Of a stretch of 64,000 nucleotides of DNA, positions 30,759 through 48,417 are shown piece by piece. Under the pieces are notes generated by a model. That model was not told the origin of the DNA and searched no databases. It saw only the letters and a program-made list of their open reading frames with translations. A program made the position numbers and the translations under genes. Within the stretch, counting starts at the first letter, position 1. Each line of letters starts with the position of its first letter. The DNA comes from Verrucomicrobiota bacterium (GTDB lineage: Bacteria; Verrucomicrobiota; Verrucomicrobiia; Limisphaerales; UBA8199). The stretch covers positions 11,298-75,297 of the forward strand of contig PSRM01000182.1 of the NCBI GenBank assembly GCA_003176045.1. Direction: 5' to 3'.

Positions 30759-31499
30759 CTAAGCGCACACCGGTCTTTGTGCAACAATTGGTGCGCTGGG
30801 TGAACCGTTCCTTTGTAATGCCCCAACCATACTTTCAAACACCAGCCGCCCATCCGCAGAACCCAAAATGCTTTCGCTGGCTCGTTCCGGATGGGGCATA
30901 AGGCCGGCCACATTGCGAGCTTCGTTGCAAATCCCGGCAATGTTGTCCAGTGAACCGTTTGGGTTGGCCGCATCCGTCGCTTCACCGGCGGCGTTGACGT
31001 AACGCCAGAGGATCTGATCATTGGTCCTGAGCCGCGCCAGCGTATCATCGTCCGCAAAATAACAGCCCTCGCCGTGAGCGATTGGAACACAGAGAAGCTT
31101 CTCTGGCGGAATGGAGTTGGTGAAGGGAGAGTTGGCGGTGATGGTCTTGAGAAAGATATGTTCGCATCGGAACTGGAGCGATCGGTTGCGGACCAATGCT
31201 CCGGGCAGCATCCCTGCCTCGCATAGAATTTGAAAGCCGTTGCAGATCCCCAGCACCAAACCTCCCTCCGACGCAAACGACCTGACTGCTTCCATCACCG
31301 GACTGAACCGCGCGATGGCGCCGGTGCGCAGGTAATCTCCGTAACTGAATCCTCCGGGGATAATCACGGCGTCAGGCTGCCCTAATGAGCTTTCTTTATG
31401 CCATAAGAGCCCGGCTGAATGGCCAAGGACATTCTGGAGGACGTGGACCGCATCCTGATCACAGTTGGAACCGGGAAATTGGAGAACCGCGAACTTCAT
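30759..31499 (-). CDS. purQ: Phosphoribosylformylglycinamidine synthase glutaminase subunit PurQ
   Basis: [41 protein letters not shown]. Confidence 0.97.
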
Positions 31500-31517
31500 C
31501 TCATTTATTCTCCAATG

Positions 31518-33419
31518 TCAGGGTGCCTTTTCTTTCCTGCGGTCCAGCAGGCGCTGGAGCGTTGCGGGCAGAGGCGCGGGATTAGTGGCCATGATGGAAC
31601 AGAGGCCGGCGGGAAATTGAGGCGACTCCAGCCAGTTGGCCAGCAGGTCCATCTCGATGGAGGTAAGGCCCACAGAAGATTTGCGGGCGAAGCTCAGGCG
31701 GTTGGTGTCGGCCAGTTTGATCTCCGTGGCCGCGTAGGTAAGATTGGTCAGGTTGTTCAGGATCCAGTTATAGCTAAGCGTCTCGTCAGATACCCGCAGG
31801 CGTTGGCGATCAAATATGATGCGATAAACGTCGTCCAGGTAGCGCCAGTGCGAAAGGCGGGGGCCGGTCCGTTCCCAATCGTAATACACCAGGTCCGGAG
31901 CCAGAGCCAGGTGGTCCAGGAACTCCATGGGAATGCTTCGATTGGTGCGAATCACGAAAAAGTCCGGCCCAAAACCGCCGTACAGAAACTGTGTGGATGC
32001 TGGACTATTGGATGGTTGGATGGTTGGATTGGCGGAGTTGGTAACTACTTGGAGAAATGGGGTGAAGTGGGGCACACCATTCCAAACCAGTTTATTGGGG
32101 TTGTTTGTCTCAAAGGCAAACGAGCCGTAGGAAGAATGAAGGAGAGGATTGACCGTCTGAATCAAAGCAGGCGCGAGGACACTGAAAAGGTTGGAAGCCT
32201 GATCCGACGCCAGGGCGAAGTAGTTGTAGAGCGGGAGGCGGCCGTCGTCCCAGAAGAAGGCCTGCGGCACGGAGGAAGATAGCAGATGGAAGATGTCAGG
32301 TGCGGATGGTTGGTTGGATGGATTGCTTGGGGAGGGCTGGGATGCTGAAATGCTGGAATGTTGGAATGATGCAAGGAGAGGACCCAGGCCGCGGACACTA
32401 GTGAACCCGACGAGGGCGCGGGTGATGAGGTTTGTGGGCACAATCCAGGGCGGGAGTGCCATACCGAGAGATTGAGGAAAGGTGAACTCGCCACGGGTGC
32501 GGACCGAGTCGCCATCGCCGAAGATACGGAGAGTGACGAGCGGGAGGATCGGGAAGACCGTTCGAGGGTCGGAGCTTGGAGCGTGGAGCGTGGTCATTTT
32601 GGCGAGGTCGAGGTCGCCTTCGAGCCAGAAATTGGTTTGAACCAAGCCGCCCGGCTCATTCTGCGAATGGGAGGGGTGAGGGGATAACCAGTCAGTCGGC
32701 AAAGGGCTGCGGTTGCTCTGGATGCGCGACTGGATTTCGGAGAGAAGAGGGGAGGAGGATGAGGAGGAGAGGGTGAGGAGAGACCAGGGGCTGAGACGTG
32801 AAACGTGAAACGTGAAGCGTGAAACGGCAGTCGTGGTCTGTGGTCCGTGGTCTGACAGCAGATTTGTGATCGCCTCTGCGAGAATCGGCGAATTGGATTG
32901 CCAGAGGGCGGCGCGGGCGTCGTTCAGGCGGATGGCCAGGACGCTTTCCGGAGGCTGGTTGGCGGAGAATTGACGCAGCTCCAGGTAGGACTCGGAGAGA
33001 ACGAGGTCGTCCAGGAGGGGGCGGATGCTGGATGTTGGATACTGGATACTGGATGGGGCGGTGTTCGACGAAGTGGACGACAAAGTGTCCTGCGGTCTTG
33101 CGAGAAAGGCGGCGATCTTATCCAGAGTCTGGGCTTCAAGGCGGGCGGTCTCGATTTGCCGCCAGAAGCGCATCAGGCCGGCGGAGTTAGTGTCGGCGGC
33201 GACGCCGTCTTTGCCCAGCCAATGAATGCGGGCAATGACAGGAGATTGCGCCGCGGTTTGAGCCGGCGCAGGAGAGCCGGATTTACCGCAGCCGGAGACA
33301 AGGCAGAGAAGGACCACAAGACCACAAGACCACGAGACTACTGACCACGGACCACAGACCACGGACCATGGAGGACGGTTCAAACGCCTGCCTCCCTGAG
33401 AAAACCCGAGACATCTCAT
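31518..33419 (-). CDS. Hypothetical lipoprotein with many repeat-derived low-complexity inserts (start uncertain)
   Basis: Lipobox LVSGC; long open frame; peptides WSVVCGP, SIQYP, SRFTFHV, LHAP and NPTIQP correspond to tandem arrays. Confidence 0.7.
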   Translation of the reverse strand: MRCLGFSQGGRRLNRPPWSVVCGPWSVVSWSCGLVVLLCLVSGCGKSGSPAPAQTAAQSPVIARIHWLGKDGVAADTNSAGLMRFWRQIETARLEAQTLDKIAAFLARPQDTLSSTSSNTAPSSIQYPTSSIRPLLDDLVLSESYLELRQFSANQPPESVLAIRLNDARAALWQSNSPILAEAITNLLSDHGPQTTTAVSRFTFHVSRLSPWSLLTLSSSSSSPLLSEIQSRIQSNRSPLPTDWLSPHPSHSQNEPGGLVQTNFWLEGDLDLAKMTTLHAPSSDPRTVFPILPLVTLRIFGDGDSVRTRGEFTFPQSLGMALPPWIVPTNLITRALVGFTSVRGLGPLLASFQHSSISASQPSPSNPSNQPSAPDIFHLLSSSVPQAFFWDDGRLPLYNYFALASDQASNLFSVLAPALIQTVNPLLHSSYGSFAFETNNPNKLVWNGVPHFTPFLQVVTNSANPTIQPSNSPASTQFLYGGFGPDFFVIRTNRSIPMEFLDHLALAPDLVYYDWERTGPRLSHWRYLDDVYRIIFDRQRLRVSDETLSYNWILNNLTNLTYAATEIKLADTNRLSFARKSSVGLTSIEMDLLANWLESPQFPAGLCSIMATNPAPLPATLQRLLDRRKEKAP

Positions 33420-33473
33420 GCACATAGAGTCGAGCCTTTTACACAAAAATGGTTCCGGGAGCAAACCCAAAGC

Positions 33474-33556
33474 ATTTTAGATTTAGTCATTTTAGATTTT
33501 AGATTTACCGAAAAAGCCCGGGTCGGCTTCTTGCATCCAATCCAAAAACCAAAATC
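33474..33556. repeat. Heptamer arrays 3' of four-helix-bundle gene 1: (ATTTTAG)n, then TCCAA/CCAAAATC
   Basis: Directly visible; the outer array is the reverse complement of 33982-34013. Confidence 0.85.
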
Positions 33557-33557
33557 T

Positions 33558-33926
33558 TCAATGTAAATTAGCCTTTGCCGTGTTCAGTGAACTGCTGAAG
33601 ATGGCACAAAGCTCGTCCGCTTCTTTCCATAGCGGCTGAATTCGAGCAGGTTTCATGAGGCCGCTTTCCATTAGGACCTCCAGCCAGAAGGCGCTCTCGT
33701 CGGCTTCCTCAAGCACGGTCCCCATCTTGGCAATGAAATCCGCCTTTGATTTCGCACGGCAAACGGCGCGATAATTGGCGCCTACGGACGAACCAGCTTT
33801 CATTAGCTGATTCCCGATTACCTTTCCCGGCTCATTCCTCGGCAAGGCAAGCACGAGCTTGATAATTCGCAGTGCAAACTTCTTCGTTCTGGCTTTCATC
33901 TCTGTCTCATTCATAGGTTTTTTCAT
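33558..33926 (-). CDS. Four-helix-bundle protein (TIGR02436 / 23S rRNA IVP family)
   Basis: RTKKFAL, NQLMKAGSSVGANY, RAKSKADFIAK, EEADES.FWLE. Confidence 0.92.
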   Translation of the reverse strand: MKKPMNETEMKARTKKFALRIIKLVLALPRNEPGKVIGNQLMKAGSSVGANYRAVCRAKSKADFIAKMGTVLEEADESAFWLEVLMESGLMKPARIQPLWKEADELCAIFSSSLNTAKANLH

Positions 33927-34013
33927 TTTGGATGTTGGATTTTCTGCTCGCTAGCAAATCGCTAAACGCAGTTCTTTTTTCAATCTAAAATCTAAAATCT
34001 GCAATCTAAAATC
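33927..34013. repeat. Heptamer arrays 5' of four-helix-bundle gene 1: TTGGATG units and (AATCTAA)n
   Basis: AATCTAA AATCTAA AATCTGC AATCTAA abuts the stop codon of the upstream gene. Confidence 0.85.
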
Positions 34014-36218
34014 CTATCTCCCCTGCCTCAGTCTGGCCACTATCGCGAGCTGGGCGTTGGCGTCGTTGGTGCGGCCTTTGGTGAGGAGGGCGTAGGCCAG
34101 ATTCTCGCGGGCGGAGAGGTCGGTGGGGGCCAAATCCACCGCGATCCGGAGCTGATCAATGGCATCGTCCACGCGCCCAGCCGTGCCCAGGGCGATGCCG
34201 AGGTTGCGATGCGCGCCGGCAAAGTTGGGCATGAGTTTGACGGCTTGTTCTGAGTGATAAATGGACTCGTTAAGGCGGCCCTTCCGGAACAAGGCCAGGC
34301 CGAGGTTGCCGTGCGCGAGGGCGTAATCCGGGTCGGCGTCCACGGCGGCCTGGTATTCGCGGATGGCGTCGTCTTCGAGTTGGGAGATTTGGCTGCGCAA
34401 CCGGGCTTGTTCGGCGGGGGCAAGTGTTTTAGGCAGGAGAAGCCTGAAAGAGACAGCTTTTTGGTTGAGTTCGGCGGCGAGATTTTGGTGGGCGAGCGCA
34501 TTGTCGCGGGTGACGGCGATGGCGTGGCCATAGAGCCTAAAGGTGTCGTGCCAGACCTGTACCTGGCCGCGTGAGAGCACACAGCAGACGGAAAGAGCCG
34601 CGACAGCGAGAGCCCCGGGCGTGAAACGTGAAACGTAAAAGGGGAAAGGGGAAACGCGATGCGCCGAAGGATGCTGCGGGCCAGCAGAACCTTGAACTTT
34701 GAACCTTGAACCTCGAACTTTGAACTCAGCAAAAGTCCAAACGACGGCGATAAATATCCCAATAAGCGGTATATAAGTGTAGCGATCGGCGTGGGCCTGG
34801 GCTCCGACCTGAAGCAGGCCGATGACTGGCAGGAGGGTGATAATGTACCAGAGCCAGCCGACGGCAGACCACGGACCACATACCGCAGTCCAAAGGCCTC
34901 GATCATACGCTAACGGCGACCCCTGAACCTTGAACCTTGAACCTTGAACTTTGAACAGGATCCAAAAGGCCGCAATGGTCAGAAGCAGCCCAACCAAGCC
35001 GAAGGCGATTGTGAGCAAGAGAGAGAAGGTTTTTGGGTAGCTGTAAAAGACGGCGAGGCGCGCGGGCCACACGGTCTGGAAGAGGTACTCGAGGTAAGAG
35101 TGGATGGCGTTTTCGAAGCGATAGAGGACGGAATAACGGGCGCCGGTTTGAAGCGCGCCGGCTTGTTTCTGGGCGATGATGGTGACGATGCCGGCAGCGA
35201 AAGAAAGGGCGAAGAAGGGAAGCTTCTCTAAAACGAGACCACTGACCACTGACCACTGACCACCCCGCCAGCGCGGTTCTGAGCAAGAACTTTGAACCTT
35301 AAGCCTTGAACCTTGAACTTTGAGCTGACTTTCGGGCGCTGGGGGATCGAAACCTTGGACTTTGGACTTCTTGTCCGCCGAAGCTTTAGCGAAGGTGGAG
35401 GGACTTTGGACTCGGTTGAGCGGCCAAAAATCCAGCAGTAAAAGCACGAGTGGAAGAGTGACAAGCATGGTTTTGCACATCAGGCCGAGGGTGAAGAGTA
35501 AAAGGGCGCTGAGGTACCAGAGCAAAGGCCTCTGAAACTGGCGAATTAGGAGAAAACCTTGAACCTTGAACTTTGAACCTTGAACTTTGAACTCGCTCCA
35601 TCGCCCTTCGCCGCTCGCCACACAGTTCGAATATGCAAGCACAGTCAGAAGGAAGAACAACGTGGAGAGCGTGTCCTTCCGTTCGGCCGCCCATGCAACG
35701 GACTCGACGTGGAGGGGGTGGACCGCGAAAAAGGCGGCCACAAAAAAGGCAGGCCACGGCGGAGATGGAATGATGGAATGGTGGAATGATGGAATAGCGG
35801 ATGAAAGCTGAAGGAGGAGGAAGAAGAGTAATAGCGTGTTGCCGGCATGGAGCACGAGACTGGTGAGATGGTGGCCCCAGGCGGCCTGGCCGAAGAGTTG
35901 GCAATCGGTCATAATCGACAGCCAGGTGATGGGGTGCCAGAATCCACCTTGGAGAGTAGTAAACGCCCAGCGGAGATTGTCCCACGCAAGCCCGCTCAAG
36001 ACGTGGGGATTGCGGTAAATGTAGGTGGGGTCGTCGTAATTGACGAAGCCATTTCGGAACAGGGGCCAAAAAGTGCCGGCGGTCAGGAGCAACAGCAACA
36101 AAGCGAGGATCAGAGGATGCCCATCGCGGAACGGCTTCAAAAGCGACTTCAAAACGAGGGAGAGTTTAGCAGAAGCAGGAAACCGCGAAATGCGCGAAAT
36201 ACGCGGAACTGGAGACAC
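34014..36218 (-). CDS. TMTC-like (GT-C fold) integral membrane protein with C-terminal TPRs and numerous repeat-derived loop inserts (start uncertain)
   Basis: NYDDPTY, HPITWLS, HPLHVESVAW..ERKD, LEKLPF, ADRYTYIP, W.D...L, TPRs (AHGNLG, AHRNLG). Confidence 0.85.
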   Translation of the reverse strand: MSPVPRISRISRFPASAKLSLVLKSLLKPFRDGHPLILALLLLLLTAGTFWPLFRNGFVNYDDPTYIYRNPHVLSGLAWDNLRWAFTTLQGGFWHPITWLSIMTDCQLFGQAAWGHHLTSLVLHAGNTLLLFFLLLQLSSAIPSFHHSIIPSPPWPAFFVAAFFAVHPLHVESVAWAAERKDTLSTLFFLLTVLAYSNCVASGEGRWSEFKVQGSKFKVQGFLLIRQFQRPLLWYLSALLLFTLGLMCKTMLVTLPLVLLLLDFWPLNRVQSPSTFAKASADKKSKVQGFDPPAPESQLKVQGSRLKVQSSCSEPRWRGGQWSVVSGLVLEKLPFFALSFAAGIVTIIAQKQAGALQTGARYSVLYRFENAIHSYLEYLFQTVWPARLAVFYSYPKTFSLLLTIAFGLVGLLLTIAAFWILFKVQGSRFKVQGSPLAYDRGLWTAVCGPWSAVGWLWYIITLLPVIGLLQVGAQAHADRYTYIPLIGIFIAVVWTFAEFKVRGSRFKVQGSAGPQHPSAHRVSPFPFYVSRFTPGALAVAALSVCCVLSRGQVQVWHDTFRLYGHAIAVTRDNALAHQNLAAELNQKAVSFRLLLPKTLAPAEQARLRSQISQLEDDAIREYQAAVDADPDYALAHGNLGLALFRKGRLNESIYHSEQAVKLMPNFAGAHRNLGIALGTAGRVDDAIDQLRIAVDLAPTDLSARENLAYALLTKGRTNDANAQLAIVARLRQGR

Positions 36219-36267
36219 GAATTACACTAATTAACACGAATTCGTGCCAATTAGTGTAATTCGCGTC
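36216..36267. repeat. Inverted repeat pair CACGAATTACACTAATT...AATTAGTGTAATTCGCG
   Basis: Hairpin-forming; a close relative is at 61921-61972. Confidence 0.75.
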
Positions 36268-36336
36268 TTCCAGTCTATAATTTTTCTATCCCGAAATTTT
36301 CTGTCAGTTCAGTTTTCGTGTGTGTCTGCCGGTCTC

Positions 36337-39282
36337 TCATCGCCGCTTCTGAGCCCGACGCTTGGCTTCAAGGAGTCGGCTGGTGGTCGTGGCAGGGGGG
36401 GCTTCCTCCGGAGCGGGAGGCGGTTCCGCAGCGGTTGCCGACGCCACCGGCGGCGGTTCGGGTTCCTCACCGCCGGGCAAGATGACTTCGACCGGCTTTT
36501 CGGGTTTGAACAAATCTTCACTGCGCCTTCCGGATTCCGCACTCCGCACCGCCTTTGCTCCCCATTCCGCGCTCCGCACTTCTCCGCGGCGAGCCAGGAG
36601 GGCTTCGAGGGAAGCGTCGGCTTCGGGAGCGCGCGGGGCGGGTTGCAGGAAGAAGAGGTAGCGGCGCAGGGCCCGGGCCGCGCGCGCCCATTCTTCGCGG
36701 TCCATCTGGATGCGTCGCACGCCGACGTCGGCCACGAAAAGCAGAATGGCGAACTTGAGCAGCCATTGCCAGAGGTCGCGCGGCTGAAACGTTTTCAGCC
36801 GATTATGTGTGAACGGGTTGTCGGTTTCGATGGCCGGATCGAGCATTTTGCCGCCGCCGCTTTCGGCCAGGCGGCGCAACAGGTTCACATTCGGCTCAGC
36901 GGAGTTGAACTCAGGTGAATAGTTCACGCTGGCGCCAACGACCTGTGATCCGACGATTTCGCGGTTTTTCACCTCCAGCAGATTGAGGGTGTAGAGTCCG
37001 ATTTCCTTCGTAGCGAACCGGGCCTCGTAATGGCCTGGGCCGGTTTGTTCGAGGTGATTGGTCTGGCTGACGCCTTTGGGGCTGGTGATGATGACTGGCA
37101 GGTTGAGGAAATTTCGGTAATTGCCCTGGGCATCGAGGGCCTCGACGTTCACCACGCCTTCGCCTTTGTCGATGGTGACCTGGGTGTCCAGGTCCGCGTT
37201 TTCAAGTTTGCGCAGGCTCCATTGGCCGATCTGGGACCAGAACTGCCGGTATTTTTCCCAATTCAGCCAAATGCGGGCCCAGCGCGCTTTGGCGTCCGCA
37301 GTGAACGCGACGGTGCGGCCCAGGCCGTATTGCCAATGGGCCAGGAGCGGATCGCCTTTATCGGTCCACATTGGCGTCTCGGCGCGGGGCTTGGGCGTGG
37401 TGGCGACGTAACCGAGCAGTTGCGGAATTTCCGGCCCTTCAAAACCGCGCACCACTTCAGTGTGAGAGCGCAACTGCGGCTTGAAAGGTTCCTCGTAGAT
37501 TGCAGACTTCAGAATAACGGCGGTTTCCTTGATGAATATCTGCGGCAGTTGCTCGGGTGAAGTCACGTTGTAGAACCGGCCACGGCCCTGGTCGGCGATC
37601 CACATCATTTGTTCGGGGCCCATGTGGCCGGAGATGAGCACGGTGCTGACGGTGATGTGGTCGTCCACGATTGCTTTCATCAATTCCTTTGCCGGCAGGG
37701 CAGGATCGCCGTCGCTGAACACGATGATGTGCTTGAGATTGGCGGTGGATTTCTTCAGACCGTCGTGAGCCAGTTGGAGCGGTCCTTGAAAGCTGGCCAT
37801 GTCGCCCTGATTCATTCCGGCGATTTGCGACTGGAGCGGGCCTCTATTATTGCTCACTTTTTGAAGGGGGAACAGCCAGCGTTCTTGCGCCTGGCCATCC
37901 CAATAAATAACGCCCATTTCATCGGCCGGTCCAAGCGCGGCCAGAACGCCCTGGGCACACTCGCGCGCGACCTGGTTGCCATTGTTAAACTCCATTCCGT
38001 GCATGATGAGCACAACGGCGCCGCTGGGCAGGACCTTCTTGCTGTCCAATTCCATGCTCACGGGGAGCATCGCCTCCAGCGGCGTGCCGCGGTAAGCGCC
38101 GGCAGCGTAAGCCTCATCGCCGCCGACACAAACCACGCCCACGCCAAAATCGCGGACGGCGCTCTCGAGCAACTTCTGCCGGTCGCTGCCCAGGTCGCCG
38201 GCGGCTACGTTGCTGATGAAGATGGCATCGTAACTTTGCATCTCGGCGAGTGTGCTTGGAAAATCCTTGAGGCCGGCGAGGACGACTTGGAGGTTGACCG
38301 GAGCGCCCGGTGAAGGCACCGGGCCTACATGAGTTTGGAGCGCGGCGGCCAATTGTTTGTCCTGGTCGGGTTCGGCCGAGATCAGCAACAGGCGGGGTTC
38401 GCCGCGGACAATGGCGAAAGTGGAGGCGCGGTTATTTTGAGGCAGCGGATCGCCTGGAGCTTCCACTTGCACGTCATATTCATAGAAACCCGGGTCGGGC
38501 AGTGTTTGAGGAAAAGTGAAAAGATTCTTGCCTTGCGAAAGTTGGACTTTTTGTTCGCCGAGGAACTGGTTATTGCGAATAAGGCGGATAGTGGCGGGCG
38601 TGGCCTGATCGGCTAGAATGAAAATTTTGGCTTCGAAGACCTGACCTCGCTTGAGGTTGGAAGGGACCTGGAGCTTTTGGACCGAAACGTCGTTCGGCCG
38701 CGCAACGCCCATGGGCACGACATCCACGGAGACGCCGAGTTGTTCTTTGGCTGCGAGCACCGCGCCCATGGCATCGCCCACGTTTTCGTTGCCATCGGTG
38801 AGCAGCACCAATCGTTTCTGGCCGCTCTCGGGGAACGCGGCGGTGCCCAGGCGGATGGCGCCGGCGAGGTCTGTGCGTTCAGTGCCGACTACGGCCTGGA
38901 TCTTGGTCAGTTCCAGGCGCGAGTTCGGCGAGCTTTCGATGCTGGCCTCGCTGCCGAACACGATGACCCCGGCCTTATCGTCGTTGTTCTTCTGGCGCAC
39001 CATGCGATTGATGAGGTCGCGAGCGGCTTCCTGTTGCGTGGACGGGATGCTGTCGGAGCGATCGAGCACGAAGAAGACGTTCATGCCTTCGACCCGCCGC
39101 CGCCATTGCAGGCCTGCCATGGCGAAGACGAGCGCCGTGACAACCACAATACGGATTAAAAGGGCGGTCCAGCGTCGCCCGGAAGAGATTTGAACGTCGC
39201 TTTTGATCGCGAACCAAAGCACCCATGCGAGCGCCGGGATGAGCGAGAGCAGGTAAAGAGGATGAGTGAAACTAAAGTTCAC
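36337..39282 (-). CDS. Membrane-anchored double-vWA / glutamine-amidotransferase-like (DUF1355-type) protein
   Basis: VLDRSDS, TDL..AI, LLTDGNEN, YDAIFISNV, IIVFSDG, LLAHWQYGLGR; GTG start at 39282 overlaps the upstream stop (GTGA). Confidence 0.85.
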   Translation of the reverse strand: MNFSFTHPLYLLSLIPALAWVLWFAIKSDVQISSGRRWTALLIRIVVVTALVFAMAGLQWRRRVEGMNVFFVLDRSDSIPSTQQEAARDLINRMVRQKNNDDKAGVIVFGSEASIESSPNSRLELTKIQAVVGTERTDLAGAIRLGTAAFPESGQKRLVLLTDGNENVGDAMGAVLAAKEQLGVSVDVVPMGVARPNDVSVQKLQVPSNLKRGQVFEAKIFILADQATPATIRLIRNNQFLGEQKVQLSQGKNLFTFPQTLPDPGFYEYDVQVEAPGDPLPQNNRASTFAIVRGEPRLLLISAEPDQDKQLAAALQTHVGPVPSPGAPVNLQVVLAGLKDFPSTLAEMQSYDAIFISNVAAGDLGSDRQKLLESAVRDFGVGVVCVGGDEAYAAGAYRGTPLEAMLPVSMELDSKKVLPSGAVVLIMHGMEFNNGNQVARECAQGVLAALGPADEMGVIYWDGQAQERWLFPLQKVSNNRGPLQSQIAGMNQGDMASFQGPLQLAHDGLKKSTANLKHIIVFSDGDPALPAKELMKAIVDDHITVSTVLISGHMGPEQMMWIADQGRGRFYNVTSPEQLPQIFIKETAVILKSAIYEEPFKPQLRSHTEVVRGFEGPEIPQLLGYVATTPKPRAETPMWTDKGDPLLAHWQYGLGRTVAFTADAKARWARIWLNWEKYRQFWSQIGQWSLRKLENADLDTQVTIDKGEGVVNVEALDAQGNYRNFLNLPVIITSPKGVSQTNHLEQTGPGHYEARFATKEIGLYTLNLLEVKNREIVGSQVVGASVNYSPEFNSAEPNVNLLRRLAESGGGKMLDPAIETDNPFTHNRLKTFQPRDLWQWLLKFAILLFVADVGVRRIQMDREEWARAARALRRYLFFLQPAPRAPEADASLEALLARRGEVRSAEWGAKAVRSAESGRRSEDLFKPEKPVEVILPGGEEPEPPPVASATAAEPPPAPEEAPPATTTSRLLEAKRRAQKRR

Positions 39283-47782: not shown

Positions 47783-47814
47783 GTTGAAGGTTGAAAGTTA
47801 AAAGTTGAAGGTTG
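47783..47814. repeat. (GTTGAAG)n heptamer array 3' of four-helix-bundle gene 2
   Basis: GTTGAAG GTTGAAA GTTAAAA GTTGAAG GTTG. Confidence 0.85.
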
Positions 47815-47822
47815 GTCAACCG

Positions 47823-48221
47823 TTACCGTTGGCGTGAAAGGCGCCTGGCATTCGTTCGAACCCTTTCCAGATAGTCTATGAACTTAGCTATTCGACGTGA
47901 CAGGGTCAGGCATGATTCACGCAGCGCCTCGAATTTTTTCTGGTCAATGTACTGCTGGTCTAGTGCAACGTAGAGTTGGGATCGGACTTCGCCATTTGAA
48001 CCTTTGGCGATGTTCAGGAAATGAATGAATTCTTTGCGAGTCCCGCGTTCGAAGCCCTCTGCGATGTTCGACATGGTCGAAGTGGAGGCGCGGATAATTT
48101 GATCTTTCAGCGTGAAATCGCGACGAAATAATCGCTCCTTCGTTATGTCGTAAATACGGTTTACTAAAACGCGCGCTTCCTGCCAAACCTTCAGATCTTC
48201 GAATTGTTTTGCCGTAGCCAT
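47823..48221 (-). CDS. Four-helix-bundle protein (TIGR02436 / 23S rRNA IVP family)
   Basis: FEDLKVWQEA, LKDQI.RA..S.MSNIAEGFER, EFIHFLNIAKGS.GEVRSQL. Confidence 0.93.
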   Translation of the reverse strand: MATAKQFEDLKVWQEARVLVNRIYDITKERLFRRDFTLKDQIIRASTSTMSNIAEGFERGTRKEFIHFLNIAKGSNGEVRSQLYVALDQQYIDQKKFEALRESCLTLSRRIAKFIDYLERVRTNARRLSRQR

Positions 48222-48385
48222 AGATTTTTATCCTCGTTAAATGTTTGTCGTATTTGTCGTATTTGTTCAGTAGGAGTGAATGAAATGAGTGTTGAATTTG
48301 CAATCTTAAGTTTATTCAACCAAGCCATTAACCTGCCTTCAGCCAAGAGGCGTTTGCGCAGACCTCAGACTCGACAAACGGAATG

Positions 48386-48417
48386 AACCTTCAACCTGTA
48401 ACCTTCAACTTTCAACT
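48386..48417. repeat. (AACCTTC)n heptamer array 5' of four-helix-bundle gene 2
   Basis: AACCTTC AACCTGT AACCTTC AACTTTC, 3 nt from the upstream stop; inverted relative to 47783-47814. Confidence 0.85.

Follow-up and report, generated by a model that had tools for sequence, protein, structure and literature searches.

A four-helix-bundle gene enclosed by nested inverted heptamer arrays: a candidate IVS-like cassette embedded in bacterial operons

The four-helix-bundle (4HB) 'IVS protein' family has been around since the early 1990s and, to our knowledge, no function has been assigned to it. Short tandem repeats form a second relevant group, of which the cyanobacterial STRR sequences, over-represented intergenic heptamer repeats, are an example. 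The older literature includes Ralph & McClelland 1993 and Mazel 1990. The intervening sequence (IVS) of the Coxiella 23S rRNA measures 428-444 nt, has a 28-bp terminal stem, carries an ORF of the PF05635 family and is cleaved in vitro by RNase III (PMC4990558). From the side of the repeats, a study of Xanthomonas describes (GGGAATC)n as intergenic tandem heptamers that often occur as convergent pairs on opposite strands and are able to form stem-loops (PMC4692102), and intergenic tandem heptamers such as the TAACTGA repeats are described for Cyanobacteria and Bacteroidetes in another (PMC4679880). No paper linking the 4HB family to flanking heptamer arrays was found in a literature search that left most subscription journals and supplementary tables outside.

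The locus described here lies in a 64,000-nucleotide stretch of Verrucomicrobiota DNA (the window), in which two genes of the same strand leave a gap that coincides exactly with an interval of 540 nt, 33474-34013. The interval holds a 4HB gene within two nested pairs of inverted arrays (Table 1). Arrays A-D, the ATG...TGA frame and the upstream stop, as listed by the first-pass annotation, were all recovered in place by TRF, the inverted-repeat search and the ORFs. TRF describes the outer arrays, both of period 7, as (ATTTTAG)x4.6 at 33474-33506 and (AATCTAA)x4.6 at 33982-34013. The earliest possible start of the downstream ORF follows array D after only 4 nt, and the upstream host gene contains in-frame heptamer arrays of its own. 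The encoded protein matches PF05635 with 49 bits (cut-off 33.8) and TIGR02436 of NCBIfam with 76.9 bits (cut-off 24), and the solved chain closest to it is 2rld_A (E 1.8e-16, residues 1-120). Since a 1631-nt contig record of the sample spans 33319-34949 without differences, the assembly of the locus is supported. Among the listed sequencing runs, one DNA run (X1) contains the stretch and no RNA run does. A joint of low depth in the sample (3.6; side 20), which connects 33508 to 33988 with 25 other letters between them, was considered as an empty allele and rejected; it matches arrays only and was taken instead as a same-unit hairpin from elsewhere in the sample.

Table 1. Coordinates of the cassette, its neighbours and the second cassette of the same class within the window.
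Feature	Coordinates	Strand	Description
Upstream host gene	34014-36218	-	734 aa, C-terminal TPR repeats (Pfam); stop codon directly adjoins array A
Array A, outer 5' arm	33982-34013	-	(GATTTTA)n on the transcript strand, one GATTGCA variant
Spacer A/B	33944-33981	-	5' untranslated part of the cassette
Array B, inner 5' arm	33925-33943	-	AAATCCA-like units; runs into the ATG at 33926-33924
4HB gene	33558-33926	-	122 aa; PF05635 23S_rRNA_IVP, TIGR02436
Array C, inner 3' arm	33539-33555	-	GATTTTG/TTGGA-like; begins 3 nt past the stop codon
Spacer C/D	33507-33538	-	Small local hairpin (from the fold), then a T run
Array D, outer 3' arm	33474-33506	-	(AAATCTA)n on the transcript strand
Downstream host ORF	31518-33470	-	650 aa, matches no Pfam family
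Second cassette	47783-48416	-	Upstream of a MoxR-like ATPase gene
4HB gene of second cassette	47823-48221		132 aa
Arms of second cassette	47783-47813 and 48386-48416		Inverted (GTTGAAG)n-type, 31 nt, 87%

The arrays are complementary in more than one combination. In the inverted-repeat search, the outer arms A and D pair over 17 nt with 100% complementarity (33489-33505 with 33982-33998), with shifted registers in addition, and local pairing is found between D and C (33488-33506 with 33545-33563, 19 nt, 79%) and between B and A (33930-33943 with 34008-34021, 14 nt, 79%). The inner arms B and C pair over 17 nt at 88% (33539-33555 with 33925-33941) and abut the start and stop codons of the 4HB gene. 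When the minus-strand RNA from 34030 to 33460 was folded, the MFE and the centroid structure alike joined A to D round the entire gene, as the first-pass annotation had envisaged, with a free energy of -185 kcal/mol (z = -3.69) that none of 100 shuffles equalled. The complementary arms are able to enclose the ORF by a stem of about 25-40 bp. A promoter scan covering sigma-70-type sites gave sites on the plus strand only and none on the strand of the 4HB gene, and no Rfam match was obtained between 31000 and 37000 at E<=0.1.

This enclosure sets 4HB genes apart from control small ORFs (pseudo-genes) in the 7.74-Mb source genome (G000), where an inverted-arm score of at least 40 was counted. The score is reached at 18/18 4HB loci vs 38/2656 control ORFs (Fisher p 2.9e-32), and vs 24 of the 412 controls that have arrays on both sides (p 1.3e-20), so that inverted arrays are indeed enriched around these genes. 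Each 4HB locus of the genome has a repeat unit of its own, with periods of 6, 7, 8, 9 and 12, and paralogues that are 54-67% identical have quite different units. Enclosure within inverted short-period arrays with locus-specific units is also found at all eight GxxExxY nuclease genes of G000. Beyond this genome, the layout is present at 18/23 4HB loci of the same order as the host and at 14 of the 16 loci of the gene's own subfamily; across the phylum, a score of at least 30 is attained at 22/29 loci vs 0/54 shifted-window controls. Among cyanobacterial and Riemerella records, four of seven loci score at least 40 and 2 more have short abutting arrays, and in cyanobacterial records the 4HB gene is embedded co-directionally in cas operons, with cas6 and cas4 as neighbours in one case and cas10 and cmr3 in another; Anabaena and Picosynechococcus strains are among those whose cas operons carry a cassette. 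The coupling between 4HB genes and inverted arrays is strict, polar and heritable, and is seen in at least three phyla.

The cassettes mostly share the orientation of their neighbours, and their two arms differ in composition. The upstream neighbour is co-directional with the 4HB gene at 16/18 loci and the downstream neighbour at 14/16, and, of the 64 4HB loci that could be decided, 59 have more G than C in the arm that lies upstream. GxxExxY cassettes, enclosed alike and mostly co-oriented with their neighbours in G000, are without this G-rich-upstream polarity (3 vs 4). Generic short hairpins lack the strand polarity of the cassette (44 vs 55); the strong co-orientation with host genes and a polarity that these hairpins lack point to a constraint at the level of the transcript. 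With moderate confidence, the locus is interpreted here as a member of a widespread class of 4HB cassettes that are embedded in operons, enclosed in inverted, mostly heptamer arrays of lineage-specific unit, IVS-like and slowly mobile. The IVS-like operon cassette put forward by the first-pass annotation is retained, as a gene of the 23S-IVS family, flanked by genes of the same direction, does occupy the loop of a long stem; its further suggestion, that such cassettes are potentially the source of the arrays across the window, is not (see below).

In mechanistic terms, a cassette of this kind would have no promoter of its own and would depend on transcription of the host operon. Pairing of the outer arms in the operon transcript would loop out the insert and bring the upstream stop and the downstream start together. 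As in the 23S-rRNA IVS that carries the same gene family, the resulting stem could offer RNase III a double-stranded substrate, which may be why an insert of this kind is tolerated. The inner arms, whose B-C stem would hold the start codon since array B runs into the ATG, may in turn gate translation of the 4HB gene. As for the polarity, we infer that it may reflect selection on the 5' arm, which would be exposed for long, for example through avoidance of C-rich Rho-loading RNA or through a purine-rich ribosome-binding region. When arm mismatches are oriented by the gene strand, no excess of G:U over A:C is found (103 vs 99, p 0.83), and transversion-type mismatches are as common (234). The arms therefore give no sign of RNA-level selection acting pair by pair, and a DNA-level process may keep them complementary.

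Comparison of related genomes indicates how the cassettes are inherited. The second cassette is orthologous in genomes G002 and G014, and at this cassette, present in three genera, the arms score 42-45 with their own partners and 16-34 across species, so that the arms co-evolve. Orthologous junctions that lack the gene exist as well: at mdh and gltD the cassette gene is present in G000 alone and in 0/17 relatives at each, G002 carries two cassettes where G000 has bare junctions of 31 nt and 13 nt, and an orthologous junction in G003 is occupied by a same-unit hairpin without the gene (40-nt arms, 75%, 51-nt loop). Cassettes whose proteins are 77-87% identical retain the same unit family although their surroundings differ, with 0 flank protein matches at E<1e-3 in 7/7 pairs compared; related cassettes with related units thus stand in unrelated contexts, and the unit therefore relocates over evolutionary time. 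Around the locus itself, the downstream proteins of relatives share 31-39% identity with the product of the downstream ORF and synteny is not kept. In a metagenome scan for this neighbour, 58 loci with at most 32% identity were recovered, none of them with a 4HB gene in the flanks, which shows only that the 4HB gene is not conserved with its downstream neighbour. Gene and arms behave together as a heritable unit, which is kept at some orthologous sites and absent from others. The two conditions that the first-pass annotation named as refuting its proposal, arrays no commoner here than around random genes and a gene retained at every orthologous locus, are thus both contradicted by the data.

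Part of this evidence can also be accommodated by an element that is mobile at the DNA level, a possible but rather unlikely alternative. The arrays would then be cis-acting ends that fold as hairpins or cruciforms in ssDNA, and movement would be transposon-like or driven by recombination, with gene-bearing copies (4HB, GxxExxY) as masters and gene-less hairpins of the same unit as their non-autonomous relatives, in the manner of REPIN-RAYT or MITE elements; alternatively, the arms would provide the homology by which the gene is copied into same-unit hairpins. The missing G:U bias, the constancy of unit family without flank homology and the gene-less hairpin at the G003 junction all favour it. 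So does the dispersal of cassette-flanking units within the same genome, as for GATTTGC (578 matches in G009, 52 in G002) and GGCTGAA (43 in G015, 23 in G009 and only 2-3 in G000 and G002), together with the predominance of inverted over direct arrangements among same-unit pairs with a short gap in G000 (330 vs 110) and the nested hairpins of other units that hairpin loops often contain.

Against a DNA-level element stand the strong co-orientation with host genes, the polarity that generic hairpins lack, the stable orthology of one cassette across three genera and the fact that RVT_1 has 0 matches in G000 (86% complete); we also know of no catalytic activity in the 4HB family. Nor is there support for tracing the arrays at large back to the cassettes. 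G000 contains 7634 arrays (3.2% of bases) against 18 4HB loci, and its 284 short-loop hairpins hold no 4HB remnants, the similarity detected in 116 of their loops being mostly due to extra degenerate units or nested hairpins. For these reasons, and since generic hairpins are without the cassette polarity and the link with array density is weak in the larger sample, the proposed origin of the window's arrays from such cassettes was abandoned. The correlation of array density with 4HB count, high in a first sample of 18 genomes (Spearman 0.80), fell to 0.28 (p 0.09) in 37 genomes under a stricter array definition, and several 4HB-rich genomes have no heptamer arrays in samples of 20-40 kb. Genomes with zero 4HB genes have 12 arrays in 717 kb and those with at least five have 40 in 659 kb (Mann-Whitney p 0.04), a weak signal from small samples of related genomes. 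The idea of one cognate gene per abundant unit was likewise rejected: of the loci flanked by heptamers, 8/13 have a unit that ranks among the 14 commonest and, because these units make up 59% of all arrays, this also fits abundance-weighted landing. It is doubtful that 4HB and GxxExxY genes are the master copies of array-hairpin families, each lineage with its own unit, and that the gene-less inverted arrays of array-rich genomes are their non-autonomous offspring or footprints. If true, this would assign a function to the 'IVS protein' family after 30 years, and it would account for the origin of the unexplained STRR-type heptamer repeats in cyanobacteria, Xanthomonas, Bacteroidota and this phylum.

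It is still less probable that the arrays are binding sites of the encoded 4HB protein, each paralogue reading its own heptamer unit, regulating itself and possibly acting on all same-unit arrays. Such binding would agree with the co-inheritance of gene lineage and unit family, with the unit families common to the cassettes and the dispersed arrays of the same genome, with the restriction of polarity to 4HB loci, and with the nature of the related Avd of diversity-generating retroelements (DGR), a pentameric nucleic-acid binder whose homology is taken from the available part of PMC10053308. A simple operator, however, needs no inverted symmetry, and the difference in units between paralogues of 54-67% identity also speaks against it. 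GxxExxY genes, which are of unrelated fold, have the same enclosure, and the arms therefore do not depend on a 4HB protein. Finally, G000 has roughly one short tandem array in every kb, hundreds of copies of the commonest units and arrays on both sides of 412/2656 control small ORFs, and a small gene between two intergenic spacers could in principle acquire matching flanks by chance. This explanation is extremely improbable and was rejected on the small-ORF and array-flanked controls, the recurrence in other orders and phyla vs shifted windows, the co-evolution of arms at orthologous loci and the rarity of the unit class of arrays A and D, which comprises only 13 of the 2776 heptamer arrays of G000.

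The interpretation as an operon-embedded, IVS-like cassette physically couples two old puzzles, the function of the 'IVS protein' and the origin or role of over-represented intergenic heptamers, and the carriers of the coupling include model cyanobacteria, in which genetics is possible. If the stems are processed, the rRNA IVS would be only the conspicuous part of a much more general class, that of loop-out cassettes carried inside operons, CRISPR-cas operons included; movement of the elements at the level of DNA would make them mobile gene cassettes of a new, hairpin-associated kind. Annotation and assembly are also affected: in this draft assembly, arrays extend into coding regions and occur at contig ends (e.g. 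C25 and C37).

With respect to known systems, the arrays resemble the convergent heptamers of the Xanthomonas/Nostoc type in being intergenic, tandem, one per strand and close together, following the definition in the accessible text of PMC4692102. Unlike here, the available parts of the heptamer-repeat papers describe no gene class in the loop, lineage-specific units, co-evolving arms or polarity (PMC4692102, PMC4679880); the terms 'four helix' and 'intervening' occur in neither text, and the supplementary tables of these papers could list such genes. REPIN-RAYT systems, as far as their partial descriptions go, likewise have a gene flanked on either side by a repeat in inverted orientation, further copies of which are scattered over the same genome as hairpin-forming doublets, and are mostly inherited vertically. 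They differ in that the gene enclosed here is not a Y1 transposase (only PF05635 was matched), in the hundreds of unit types and in the flanks, which are tandem arrays, with 13 same-unit arrays dispersed in G000, and not REP palindromes of 20-40 bp. Y1_Tnp genes flanked by REP-like palindromes occur elsewhere in G000.

The 4HB protein shares a homologous four-helix-bundle fold with Avd, according to the accessible part of PMC10053308; a DGR was rejected, as RVT_1 is unmatched in G000 and neither a reverse transcriptase ORF nor a template/variable repeat is found in 31000-37000. GxxExxY genes (PDDEXK_3, TIGR04256) are alike in their inverted short-period arrays with locus-specific units and their predominant co-orientation (8/8 enclosed in G000), and unlike in their PD-(D/E)XK nuclease fold, the missing G-rich-upstream polarity and periods that are often 8-10. 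The integron gene cassette (attC) offers only an analogy, that of a promoterless ORF with a hairpin-forming site, whereas here repeats lie on both sides of the ORF. The 23S rRNA IVS with its 'S23p' ORF (Leptospira, Coxiella and others) differs in its host transcript, which here is a protein-coding operon and not a 23S rRNA helix (no Rfam match in 31000-37000; the G000 assembly contains no 23S rRNA gene), and apparently in its stems, which here consist of heptamers in tandem, with units specific to the lineage and a further pair of arms nested inside. By the description in PMC4990558, the two nevertheless share the gene family PF05635, a comparable size (540 nt here vs 428-444 nt), an ORF in the loop of a terminal-inverted-repeat stem, co-orientation with the host transcript and a sporadic distribution.

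The safest statement about the four-helix-bundle (4HB) gene at 33474-34013 is that its locus belongs to a widespread class, in which inverted tandem arrays that are polar and co-evolve flank a small gene embedded in an operon. The flanked gene is of the 4HB family in some cases and, as a parallel, encodes a GxxExxY nuclease in others. The first-pass annotation had placed the gene within nested inverted heptamer arrays, and every element of this layout proved correct. The window corresponds to positions 11298-75297 of contig C61 in a draft genome (G000; 7.74 Mb, 372 contigs, 86% complete, 57% G+C), and 540 bases separate the stop codon of the upstream TPR gene from the first possible start of the 650-aa ORF. 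According to profile matches, the 4HB product is assigned to PF05635 (23S_rRNA_IVP) and TIGR02436 (four helix bundle protein), with 2rld_A as the closest solved structure. In the computed transcript fold A is paired with D, so that the whole gene is enclosed. No Rfam family was matched in 31000-37000, and a promoter scan found no sigma-70-like promoter on the strand of the 4HB gene.

Features of the locus and of other genes and hairpins in G000 (window coordinates unless a contig is named)
Feature	Position	Strand	Remarks
Upstream gene	34014-36218	minus	734 aa, TPR-bearing
Array A, (GATTTTA)n	33982-34013		first in transcript order, after upstream stop
Spacer A-B			38 nt
Array B	33925-33943		runs into ATG of 4HB ORF
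4HB ORF	33558-33926	minus	122 aa
Array C	33539-33555		begins 3 nt past 4HB stop codon
Spacer C-D			32 nt, holds small hairpin
Array D, (AAATCTA)n	33474-33506		last in transcript order
Downstream ORF	31518-33470	minus	650 aa
Pairing A.D			17 nt, plus shifted registers; 100% complementarity
Pairing B.C			17 nt; 88% complementarity
Pairing C.D			19 nt; 79% complementarity
Pairing A.B			14 nt; 79% complementarity
PDDEXK_3/GxxExxY genes	C240:6049-6402, C71:33169-33519, C265:52089-52436		five more
IS200-like Y1 transposase genes	C240:8183-8524, C166:357-698
DUF559 endonuclease genes	C110:250-579, C6:1186-1515
Hairpin-loop examples	C200:513-585, C137:7636-7710, C111:12188-12263

Arrays also occur in the neighbouring genes. 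The true start of the downstream ORF is uncertain, because a (GACCACA)n array (33312-33368) occupies its first codons as annotated. Inside the TPR ORF, (GAACCTT)n and other heptamer arrays lie in the coding frame (34620-35592) and translate to repeated 7-residue peptides (FKVQGSR...), a motif also present in other G000 ORFs; coding sequence is thus entered by arrays as well, three units making 21 nt, or 7 codons. In the DNA sequencing run X1, one low-depth contig links array D (33508) to array A (33988) with 25 other letters between them, and probably stems from some other place in the sample, where this unit forms a hairpin without a gene, rather than from an empty allele.

Since G000 is full of short tandem arrays (7634 after merging, 3.2% of bases; heptamer arrays number 2776, in 304 unit classes), a control set was essential. 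PF05635 matches occur at 21 places, or 18 loci when two tandem gene pairs and one split gene are each taken as one. All 18 carry an array upstream and its reverse complement downstream, detected by TRF or in the sequence, with units that vary between loci (periods 6, 7, 8, 9 and 12). The inverted-arm score, which is that of the best local alignment between the 300-nt left flank and the reverse-complemented right flank of equal length, is at least 40 at 18/18 4HB loci, compared with 38/2656 control ORFs of 270-800 nt (Fisher p 2.9e-32) and 24/412 controls flanked left and right by TRF arrays no more than 300 nt away (Fisher p 1.3e-20), the controls being greedy longest-ORF calls and not curated genes. 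Inverted arrays are thus commoner around 4HB genes than around control ORFs, as the first-pass annotation had anticipated, while the direct-repeat score reaches at least 40 at only 2/18 loci. Eleven of the 38 positive controls are small 'selfish-looking' genes, namely PDDEXK_3/GxxExxY, IS200-like Y1 transposase and DUF559 genes. In a family search, 8/8 PDDEXK_3/GxxExxY places in G000 proved to have inverted arrays around the gene, with periods of 7-10 and a unit particular to each locus (seven visible with 350-nt flanks; the eighth, a longer gene, needs 700 nt). The flanks of the Y1_Tnp and DUF559 genes are REP-like palindromes rather than arrays, and G000 may also hold a classical REP/RAYT-type system.

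Within the same order, 20 stretches were taken from the upper end of the match list, leaving out four top matches (three at or near contig ends, one with a stop). Of the 23 matches in these stretches, 18/23 score at least 35, and their arms, again of heptamer type, lie 10-115 nt away from the gene; in the subfamily of the studied gene (proteins 34-61% identical) the count is 14/16 loci. Across 29 genomes of the phylum, related and not independent samples, with one tool-chosen 4HB locus each, the score is at least 30 at 22/29 loci and at least 35 at 15/29, whereas 0/54 windows shifted by 1 kb reach 30. Beyond the phylum, plasmid sequences searched by tblastn gave 18 matching records, seven of which, all from plasmid collections, were examined. 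Scores are 40-59 in Nostoc ATCC 53789, Riemerella, Anabaena 90 and Pseudanabaena (where the direct-repeat score is also strong); in N. punctiforme and Picosynechococcus (23 and 29), short inverted arrays abut the 4HB start and stop. Calothrix PCC 7716 has no inverted arrays and is the sole record of the seven not co-oriented with its neighbours. The plasmid-borne genes lie inside operons, including cas6-4HB-cas4 twice and cas10-4HB-cmr3; the CRISPR-cas cassettes are those of the Anabaena 90, Pseudanabaena galeata and Picosynechococcus PCC 7003 plasmid records.

Comparison of orthologous junctions indicates that the cassettes, defined as gene plus flanking arrays, come and go. The aldehyde-dehydrogenase/mdh junction of G000 reads stop, (GTTAAATGA)n, 4HB, (ATTTAAC..)n, mdh, with 42-nt arms that are 90% complementary and 567 nt apart. 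In the relative G003 (mdh 86% identical), this junction is a 176-nt spacer with no 4HB gene, holding 40-nt arms of G000's 9-mer family (75%, 51-nt loop), and in G006 the downstream array alone remains. An HMM trained on the 4HB copies of G000 detected a 4HB gene within 1.5 kb upstream of mdh in 0/17 relatives and upstream of gltD in 0/17; only G000 has them. The ABC-transporter operon of G002 contains two cassettes, the G000 equivalents being junctions of 31 and 13 nt without arrays. The gene is therefore not always retained at orthologous loci, as the proposal of a cassette implied.

A second cassette of the window (47783-48416), upstream of a MoxR-like ATPase gene, has orthologues in two other genera (G002 and G014), flanked by the same gene pair and encoding 4HB proteins 55-67% identical. 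Their units have drifted (GTTGAAG, GTTGCAG, GTTTTCAAG), and have done so in step, with upstream and downstream arms matching at 42-45 within a genome versus 16-34 across genomes. Closely related cassettes also keep their unit family in unrelated places: GGCTGAA is common to two G015 cassettes and one of G009 (77-87% protein identity), GATTTGC to cassettes of G009 and G002 (83%), and at the studied locus, 61% identical to a G009 copy, the unit is GATTTTA, with GATTGCA as a variant. The flanks of related cassettes gave no protein match at E<1e-3 in 7/7 pairs compared.

Cassette units are also dispersed in the genomes carrying those cassettes. There are 578 GATTTGC pattern matches in G009, and GGCTGAA is matched 43 times in G015, 23 in G009 and 2-3 in G000 and G002, with reversed-pattern controls mostly near zero but high for GGCTGAA in G016 and G000. 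At the DNA level, short-gap same-unit pairs in G000 are inverted in 330 cases versus 110 direct, and hairpin loops frequently hold nested hairpins of another unit; ACGCAAAG-arm hairpins repeatedly enclose a second one with CACGAATT-type arms, a composite that recurs at several loci. No 4HB remnants were found in 284 hairpin loops. The earlier suggestion that all arrays derive from cassettes receives little support: array density correlated with 4HB count at rho 0.80 for n=18, but this weakened to 0.28 at n=37 (p 0.09).

Regarding the level at which the arms act, the favoured reading, at about even chances, is that the insert would be co-transcribed with its operon and looped out in the RNA. 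Neighbours lie on the 4HB gene's strand upstream at 16/18 loci and downstream at 14/16, and in the upstream arm, read on the sense strand, G exceeds C at 59 of 66 4HB loci from all sets (C>G at 5, 2 ties; sign test p 7e-11, GxxExxY included). Generic short-loop hairpins between co-directional genes (44 vs 55) are devoid of this polarity, as are GxxExxY cassettes (3 vs 4 loci). Co-orientation and the striking arm polarity speak for a transcript-level role, in which the outer stem, by analogy, might be a processing or insulating structure in operon RNA and the inner stem a translational gate. Against RNA-level selection on single pairs speak the non-Watson-Crick arm positions, with 103 of G:U type versus 99 of A:C type (other mismatches, 234). 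Because this G:U signature is missing and gene and arms relocate together, a DNA-level hairpin element of REPIN-RAYT or MITE-like type remains a serious alternative, although a less likely one. A search of G000 yielded no reverse transcriptase.

Among known systems, heptamer repeats and convergent pairs are described in Xanthomonas and Nostoc (PMC4692102), and TAACTGA repeats in Beggiatoaceae, Cyanobacteria and Bacteroidetes (PMC4679880); the terms 'four helix' and 'intervening' are absent from both texts. No description of a coupling between 4HB genes and heptamer arrays was found in the literature searched, main texts mostly from non-subscription journals. The coupling is of high interest, as it makes two old open questions testable. 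The closest comparison is with 23S rRNA intervening sequences (IVS), which carry the same gene family; they measure 428-444 nt, are closed by a terminal stem of 28 bp and serve as RNase III substrates in vitro (PMC4990558). Of the IVS-like cassette proposed in the first-pass annotation, the family assignment and the long enclosing stem between co-directional genes hold. The cassette would work like an IVS, yet it falls outside the IVS class because it does not lie in rRNA.
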